DNA of 64,000 nt, taken from NCBI GenBank assembly GCA_000165345.1, contig CM000431.1, positions 160,001 through 224,000 on the forward strand, given 5' to 3'. Shown here piece by piece: positions 31,690 through 32,400 of this stretch. Both the position numbers and the translations under genes were made by a program. Position 1 is the stretch's first letter; every line of letters starts with the position of its first letter. The notes beneath the pieces were generated by a model. The model was not told the origin of the DNA, made no database searches, and saw only the letters and a list, made by a program, of their open reading frames with translations.

Positions 31690-32400
31690 TCAAATGTAGG
31701 ATTTTTAGGTTTAGGGTTTTTAGGCCTAATTCCAAGTTTAGGACTCTCAGGCCTAAATTCCAGGCCTAACTTCCAAGCCTAATTCCAAGTTTAGAACTCA
31801 CAGGACTAAATTCCAGGCCTAACTTTCAAGCCTAATTCCAAGTTTAGAACTCACAGGCCTAAATTCCAGGCCTAATTCCAAGCCTAGGATTTCCCACCTA
31901 AATCCAGGCCTAACTTCCAATGACTAAATTCCGAGCATAAATTCAAGTCCTAAATTCCAAGTTTAGAACTCTCAGGCCTAAATTCCAGGCCTAATTCCAA
32001 GCCTAGGATTTCCCACCTAAATCCAGGCCTAAATTCCAAGTTTAGGACTCTCAGGCCTAAATTCCAGGCCTAACTTCCAAGCCTAATTCCAAGTTTAGAA
32101 CTCTCAGGCCTAAATTCCAGGCTTAATTTCAAGCCTAATTCCAAGTTTAGAACTCACAGGCCTAAATTCCAGGCTTAATTTCAAGCCTAATTTCAAGTCT
32201 AGGATTTCCCACCTAAATCCAGGCCTAACTTCCAAGACTAATTCCAAGTTTAGGACTCACAGGCCTAACTTCCAGGCCTAAATTCCAAGTTTAGAACTCT
32301 CAGGCCTAATTTCCAAGACTAAATTCCAAGCCTAAATTCCAGGCCTAACTTCCAATGACTAAATTCCGAGCATAACTTTCAAACCCAACTCCAAGCCTAA
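31690..32400. repeat. Minisatellite of about 700 bp with a higher-order unit of about 54 bp made of 12-13-bp subunits (AGGCCTAAATTCC, AGGCCTAACTTCC, AAGCCTAATTCC) and an AAGTTTAGAACTCWC spacer. Read on the minus strand, every subunit contains a telomere-like hexamer: TTTAGG, GTTAGG or ATTAGG.
   Basis: Direct inspection of 31690-32400 shows the array begins with degenerate TTTAGG-like units (ggatttttaggtttagggtttttagg). It lies in the 1.1-kb gap between the convergent genes ending at 31454 and 32547. Confidence 0.85.

Follow-up and report, generated by a model that had tools for sequence, protein, structure and literature searches.

A tandem array of telomere-like units lies between two convergent genes of Cryptosporidium parvum, about 190 kb inside the 1.10-Mb chromosome 3, and raises the question of whether it descends from a telomere or is an ordinary minisatellite whose unit happens to resemble one. 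The chromosome ends of C. parvum carry (TTTAGG)n (PMC8848321; PMC11599830), so the Cryptosporidium telomere unit given in an earlier note on this DNA is correct for this species. We analyzed the array in a 64,000-nt (64-kb) stretch of the chromosome (the window, to which coordinates refer unless stated otherwise) and compared it with orthologous loci fetched from other assemblies by way of both flanking proteins. The array is very likely a locus-specific, non-coding minisatellite (VNTR) that grows and shrinks by slippage and unequal exchange, with an incidental telomere word in its unit.

The array fills a 1092-bp spacer onto which two genes converge with their 3' ends, one encoding an acyl-CoA synthetase and the other an 863-residue protein. 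The left flanking gene (29397–31454, + strand) is an ORF of 685 codons with a Pfam AMP-binding match, and its product is identical to acyl-CoA synthetase XP_626649.1/EAK89199.1 of C. parvum Iowa II. Judging from chromosome position and name, it is probably cgd3_640, which has been named CpACS1 (PMC8717973). The right flanking gene (32547–35138, − strand) is convergent with the synthetase gene and has no Pfam hit on record. The description of the array in the earlier note as an interstitial, intergenic higher-order minisatellite between convergent genes is upheld. The array is bordered by two unique parts of the spacer. The left part (31455–31696) is T-rich and can be aligned position for position across C. 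parvum, C. hominis, C. tyzzeri and C. meleagridis; it presumably represents the 3' UTR region of the synthetase gene. The right part (32403–32546) is A-rich and also conserved between species, and presumably represents the corresponding region of the minus-strand gene.

The body of the array (31722–32402, + strand) is a real tandem repeat, variable in length between isolates and species. Tandem Repeats Finder gave overlapping arrays across 31722–32367, with periods of 13 (47 copies, score 351), 53 (11 copies, score 353) and 119 (2.7 copies, 84% matches, score 426). A dynamic-programming parse with eight unit types divided the body into 52 units of 9–15 nt at a total cost of only 39 edits; the main unit types are AGGCCTAAATTCC, AGGCCTAACTTCCA, AGCCTAATTCCA, AGTTTAGAACTCAC, AGCCTAGGATTTCCC, ACCTAAATCC, ATGACTAAATTCCG and AGCATAAATTCA. 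Minisatellites consist of head-to-tail tandem units of about 10–100 nt, a description that fits these periods and units. Allowing up to two mismatches, AGGCCTAAATTCC matches 23 times, always inside 31715–32367; the mean in shuffled sequences was 1.9, and none of 100 shuffles reached 23. Neither the rest of the 64-kb window nor the flanks of 31 fetched loci contained any further copy of the units.

Self-identity of the array is 0.47 at lag 13, 0.506 at lag 53 and 0.315 at lag 54, compared with a compositional baseline of 0.27. The higher-order repeat described earlier is thus present, with a period of 53 instead of about 54, and the 53-nt block corresponds to units C-D-A-B (unit types are denoted by letters). 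The claim that each subunit contains CCTAAA, CCTAAC or CCTAAT is true of 30 of the 52 units (14, 7 and 9, respectively) and fails for the rest; three other units ('AGTTTAGGACTC') carry TTTAGG in the opposite orientation. The + strand of the array is C-rich (C 198 and G 88 of 686). Larger duplications are also apparent. The closest copies of a 106-nt stretch (family D1) are 88–93% identical, the nearest lying 53 nt away, and a recent duplication of a 119-nt block (family D2; 31859–32039, + strand) has left 62-nt copies at 31859–31920 and 31978–32039 that are 98% identical.

Several other classes of element were considered for this structure and rejected. A coding or peptide repeat is excluded by an ORF scan, which found no ORF of at least 50 aa across the spacer array, and by periods that are not multiples of 3. 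A known RNA family is likewise excluded: Rfam gave no family match, its only two hits being to microRNA models (E = 0.19 and 0.3) far below thresholds. A large degenerate palindrome, with the left flank composed of inverted units, was examined by local alignment of the left flank with the reverse complement of the array; the score of 22 compares with 17.3 ± 2.8 for shuffles, 8–17% of which scored as high.

The array recurs at the orthologous locus of related species. The spacer is 1092 bp long with 52 units in the window and in three other C. parvum assemblies of identical sequence, 711 bp with 23 units in C. parvum GCA_048859185.1, 666–669 bp with 21 units in six C. hominis sources, 495 bp with 9 units in two identical C. 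meleagridis assemblies, and 479 bp with 5 units in C. tyzzeri. The unit string of the IOWA-type C. parvum array is BDABCDABCDABEFBGHADABEFAdABCDAaCDAaCEFBCDAADAAABGHcf and that of the second C. parvum allele BDABCDAAAABGHADAAABGHcf; the strings are bdBCEFBEFBGHADAbCGHcf in C. hominis, BHaEfAGcf in C. meleagridis and AGhcf in C. tyzzeri. In this parse, arrays long enough to compare share a start (B-D), an end (G-H-c-f) and internal landmarks (E-F and G-H). These common first and last units and landmarks indicate that the arrays are orthologous, constituting one locus with internal gain and loss of units. Both the short C. parvum allele and C. tyzzeri lack the E-F units that C. meleagridis, C. 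hominis and the IOWA-type C. parvum array share, indicating that these two have lost units by deletion. Chipmunk genotype I carries a related, degenerate array, ~400 nt long and oriented the same way, whose units include CCAAGCCTAAAATTCCC; 'AAGCCTAAA' is common to the array units of every species that has an array. From the related arrays in the same spacer of C. hominis, C. meleagridis, C. tyzzeri and chipmunk genotype I, we infer that the array is old.

Two more distant species have no array. The spacer is 232 bp in C. felis and 249 bp in C. serpentis (a gastric species), about one quarter the length of the C. parvum spacer, and gene order is retained in both. The order of a five-gene neighbourhood is identical in C. 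ubiquitum, C. felis and C. serpentis, so synteny, proposed earlier as a means of dating the array, extends out to C. serpentis. Conservation of gene order as far as this array-free species indicates that no chromosome fusion occurred at the spacer. A head-to-head telomere fusion, in which TTTAGG... would meet CCTAAA... at 31724/31725, is excluded by gene order conserved across the genus and by the short, array-free spacers of distant species. A centromere-type satellite was dropped on the grounds that C. tyzzeri has 5 units and C. felis and C. serpentis have none.

The C. ubiquitum spacer (683 bp; 8053–8735 in the coordinates of the fetched locus) has a different build from the C. parvum array. 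It contains a 70-nt inverted repeat, 90% complementary (8226–8295 and 8609–8678), around 313 nt, as well as a G-rich 24-nt tandem repeat. The annotated synthetase model of this species (742 aa) extends into the spacer, though the conserved stop codon ends at 8052. The few words common with the C. parvum array (TTCAAGCCTAAT and CCAAGCCTAAA) occur in inverted orientation, possibly as the result of an inversion between the two repeat arms. The spacer and the array have 8 9-mers in common, inverted, compared with 1.3 in shuffles, but these come from three sites only; they hint weakly that the two sequences may be homologous.

The inverted repeat of C. ubiquitum and its few inverted C. parvum-like words are also what would speak for the array belonging to, or being left over from, a mobile or dispersed repeat family. 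Transposons and foldback elements are marked by terminal inverted repeats, a target-site duplication and multiple copies. The only inverted repeats of the C. parvum locus are poly-T and poly-A tracts; it has no ORF, and it occupies the same site in all species. A dispersed family was rejected because no further copy exists in the window or in any fetched locus; a 21-mer also had no exact match in JGI metagenome contigs. Taken together, a mobile or dispersed origin is extremely improbable.

The part of the array that most resembles a telomere is its opening (31697–31726, + strand), which consists of two tandem 15-mers, TAGGATTTTTAGGTT (31697–31711) followed by TAGGGTTTTTAGGCC (31712–31726). The degenerate tttagg units reported here in the earlier note are located at 31702–31724 as TTTTTAGGTTTAGGGTTTTTAGG, the sole run of two or more T(2–5)AG(2–3) units in 64 kb. 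The only perfect two-unit telomere stretch, TTTAGGTTTAGG (31704–31715), is the longest telomere match of the window and its sole stretch of at least 11 perfect telomere bases. This stretch is found in the IOWA-type C. parvum allele only; at the same place the second C. parvum allele has TTTAGGCTTAGG and C. tyzzeri has TTTAGGGTTAGG. C. hominis has the first 15-mer only, followed directly by TAATTCC, and a single TTTAGG. In C. meleagridis the opening is TCAGGATTTTCAGGCT followed by TAATTCC, with no TTTAGG (TTTTCAGGCTTAATTCC).

The second 15-mer is thus a 15-nt tandem duplication present in C. parvum and C. tyzzeri only, and the middle 'unit' of the three-unit run straddles the duplication junction. 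In sequence at this locus, C. parvum is closer to C. tyzzeri than to C. hominis, with C. meleagridis the farthest removed among the four species. Since the duplication is absent from C. hominis and C. meleagridis and C. tyzzeri is the closer relative, the three-unit run is most simply read as having arisen in the C. parvum/C. tyzzeri lineage. With TTTAGGTTTAGG confined to the IOWA-type allele, it is the most derived sequence that looks most like a telomere, whereas decay of a telomeric seed would predict the opposite.

A telomere-derived seed would be a short telomere stretch, inserted by telomerase at break repair or captured from a chromosome end, from which a minisatellite then grew. This would agree with the (TTTAGG)n telomere of C. 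parvum, with the CCTAAA of the unit consensus, with the occurrence of 'AAGCCTAAA' in the arrays of all array-bearing species, and with the presence of TTTAGGTTTAGG at the array edge. In simulations of random 12–14 nt tandem units of array composition, TTTAGG appears on either strand in ~1% and TTAGG in ~3%; the ~1% figure, however, concerns one array chosen after many repeats had been read, and is therefore not strong evidence.

The structure of the array argues against such a seed. There is no 6-nt period (self-identity 0.30 at lag 6 compared with the baseline of 0.27), no perfect telomere run in the body exceeds 7 nt, and the remainder of the 13-nt unit (7 nt, TTCCAGG) is, on direct reading, unlike the telomere repeat. 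The opening carries the telomeric G-strand on the + strand and the CCTAAA units carry the C-strand, so that the two have opposite orientations, and some units have TTTAGG on the + strand, which telomerase addition leaves unexplained. The opening itself is accounted for by the 15-nt duplication. A telomeric origin by healing, fusion, telomerase-mediated insertion or expansion of a seed, as suggested in the earlier note, is not supported in view of these features and the conserved gene order. A seed in particular is unlikely, and a short telomere-like insertion in a very distant ancestor, to which the common 'AAGCCTAAA' might point, has nothing positive in its favour. The CCTAAA/TTTAGG word is best read as a coincidental match to the telomere repeat.

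Comparison with known telomere-like sequences leads to the same reading. Interstitial telomeric sequences and the plant telo-box resemble the array in having the hexamer at internal chromosome positions; in addition, one allele carries two perfect units back to back at the array edge. Interstitial telomeric sequences are characterized by contiguous TTTAGG units, 6-nt periodicity and a site of fusion or break repair. Here, in contrast, contiguous units number two, at 31704–31715 in one allele; the hexamer occurs at most once per 13-nt unit and in both orientations, without a 6-nt period; and the five-gene order is kept, with a locally duplicated, derived opening. No interstitial telomeric sequences of Cryptosporidium were found in the literature searched. 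We consider it unlikely that telomere proteins bind the isolated hexamers of the array.

The array is polymorphic within C. parvum, as the earlier note had anticipated. The two alleles have 52 and 23 units, and their spacers of 1092 bp (four assemblies) and 711 bp (one assembly) differ by 381 bp. For the long allele, three independent assemblies agree exactly with the window, indicating that it is correctly assembled, and its last 201 nt are exactly matched by one contig of another run (SRR5007564). The first 392–409 nt of the short allele, including the diagnostic 'DAAAAB' unit order, are exactly matched by eight independent short-read contigs, and its last 201 nt by two further short-read contigs. 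All of these matching short-read contigs end within the array, as would be expected of a repeat that exceeds the read length. The length polymorphism within C. parvum is real, the short allele being confirmed at both edges, and copy number varies between two C. parvum lineages in the manner of a VNTR. The potential as a typing marker that the earlier note saw in the locus is borne out by these two alleles.

Other repeats occur in the same window. A coding repeat with periods of 45 and 93 (26718–27284, minus strand) is a second length-variable repeat close to the minisatellite. The gene that contains it (25529–27701, − strand) is split in the window into overlapping ORFs in different frames (25529–26776 and 26754–27701), and in other assemblies encodes one protein, of 745 or 717 aa in C. 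parvum, 694–718 aa in C. hominis, 631 aa in C. tyzzeri and 605 aa in C. meleagridis; the split is possibly a frameshift error of the window assembly. A TTTGAG/18-nt coding repeat (36501–36566), corresponding to a Ser/Asp/Asn-rich tract in an 882-aa gene (35603–38251, − strand), may be another small coding VNTR; the protein is 882 aa in C. parvum and 880–892 aa across C. hominis sources. A long CCT/12-nt (CTCCACCTGCTG) repeat (51290–51503) within a 1045-aa ORF (50063–53200) coincides with a local GC peak of 41.8% and strong negative GC skew.

The remaining features of the window concern its composition and assembly. The intergenic stretch upstream of the synthetase gene (28001–29400) is very AT-rich (GC 15.6% across 28001–29000), with (ATTTATATAT)n-type low-complexity repeats at 28578–28624 and 29290–29375. 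The sole tRNA gene of the window is a tRNA-Glu (CTC) at 22377–22450 (− strand). About 98 scattered N in an AT-rich region (24457–25650) make up nearly all differences from newer C. parvum assemblies across 22 kb, indicating that the window comes from an older, lower-quality assembly; its minisatellite sequence is nonetheless identical to that of long-read assemblies.

The differences between alleles and species consist of whole units or blocks. Near-perfect internal block repeats together with whole-unit differences are the standard signature of slippage, unequal exchange or gene conversion between misaligned repeats. The pattern of repeats suggests the following history for the minisatellite. 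A short proto-array of 'AGCCTAA.TTCC'-type units would have existed in the ancestor of C. meleagridis, C. hominis, C. tyzzeri and C. parvum, an ancestor probably shared with chipmunk genotype I. Replication slippage and unequal exchange would then have lengthened and shortened it in steps of one unit (~13 nt) or of blocks (53 or 119 nt), to yield the unit counts given above for the two C. parvum lineages and the other three species, from 52 in the IOWA-type array down to 5 in C. tyzzeri. On this history the array calls for no function and probably evolves neutrally. As far as tested, in the 64-kb window and the 31 fetched loci, the array is specific to this locus.

Three observations run against this ordinary-minisatellite reading: the perfect 12-mer TTTAGGTTTAGG at the array edge, the persistence of a related repeat in one spacer of a very compact genome, and a single-stranded fold stronger than that of shuffles. 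The last two would bear on a functional spacer element, which might be a strand-asymmetric or hairpin terminator, an insulator, or a platform for a TTAGG-recognising protein. Persistence at the same place in at least five species could hint at constraint and is the one point we regard as favouring function. The strong strand asymmetry (C 198 compared with G 88 on the + strand) and the hairpins could also be cited. The + strand folds as ssDNA at −87.4 kcal/mol, compared with −57.5 ± 5.1 kcal/mol for 20 shuffles (z = −5.9), and this stability derives from short CCTAA(A)-7 nt-TTTAG(G/A) hairpins, formed by a D unit with the preceding unit, and from AGGCCT palindromes. The hairpins are not conserved, since C. 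meleagridis lacks the D units that form them.

If the repeat were kept for a role, its asymmetry and hairpins might help to stop transcription between the convergent genes, or its TTAGG words might recruit a Myb-type telomere-repeat-binding protein. Such a role is very doubtful, as is a functional element generally, because the copy number varies tenfold among close relatives (from 5 to 52 units) and from 23 to 52 in C. parvum itself, the array is almost lost in C. tyzzeri, and C. felis and C. serpentis lack it; the array also has no Rfam match.

As a minisatellite, the array has close counterparts. Like the non-coding minisatellites of many eukaryotes, it is composed of head-to-tail units (9–15 nt) with interspersed variants, a higher-order pattern and degenerate terminal units, it differs in copy number between individuals and species, and it is non-coding and, as far as tested, confined to a single locus. 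Nothing essential sets it apart from them, and its setting is unusual only in the compactness of Cryptosporidium genomes. Established Cryptosporidium micro- and minisatellite typing markers (e.g. ML1, ML2, TP14, MSB, MSC6-7 and cgd3_3850; PMC4746124) are likewise tandem repeats whose length varies between C. parvum isolates. The present array differs from these markers in being intergenic, in having alleles hundreds of bases apart, and in breaking short-read assemblies, so that long reads or PCR sizing are needed. The locus was not found among published Cryptosporidium VNTR typing markers in the literature searched, the unit sequences had no match in the Cryptosporidium literature (one 13-mer occurs only in two unrelated plant papers), and no discussion of the array was found in assembly papers.

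The value of the array is mainly practical, as a length marker for C. parvum chromosome 3: it is large, clearly polymorphic and non-coding, has species-specific sizes, and could be typed by PCR or long reads. Since short-read assemblies break within it, variant calls there deserve distrust. The array offers nothing new on telomere biology; it is a small, well-resolved case of minisatellite turnover in a very compact parasite genome.
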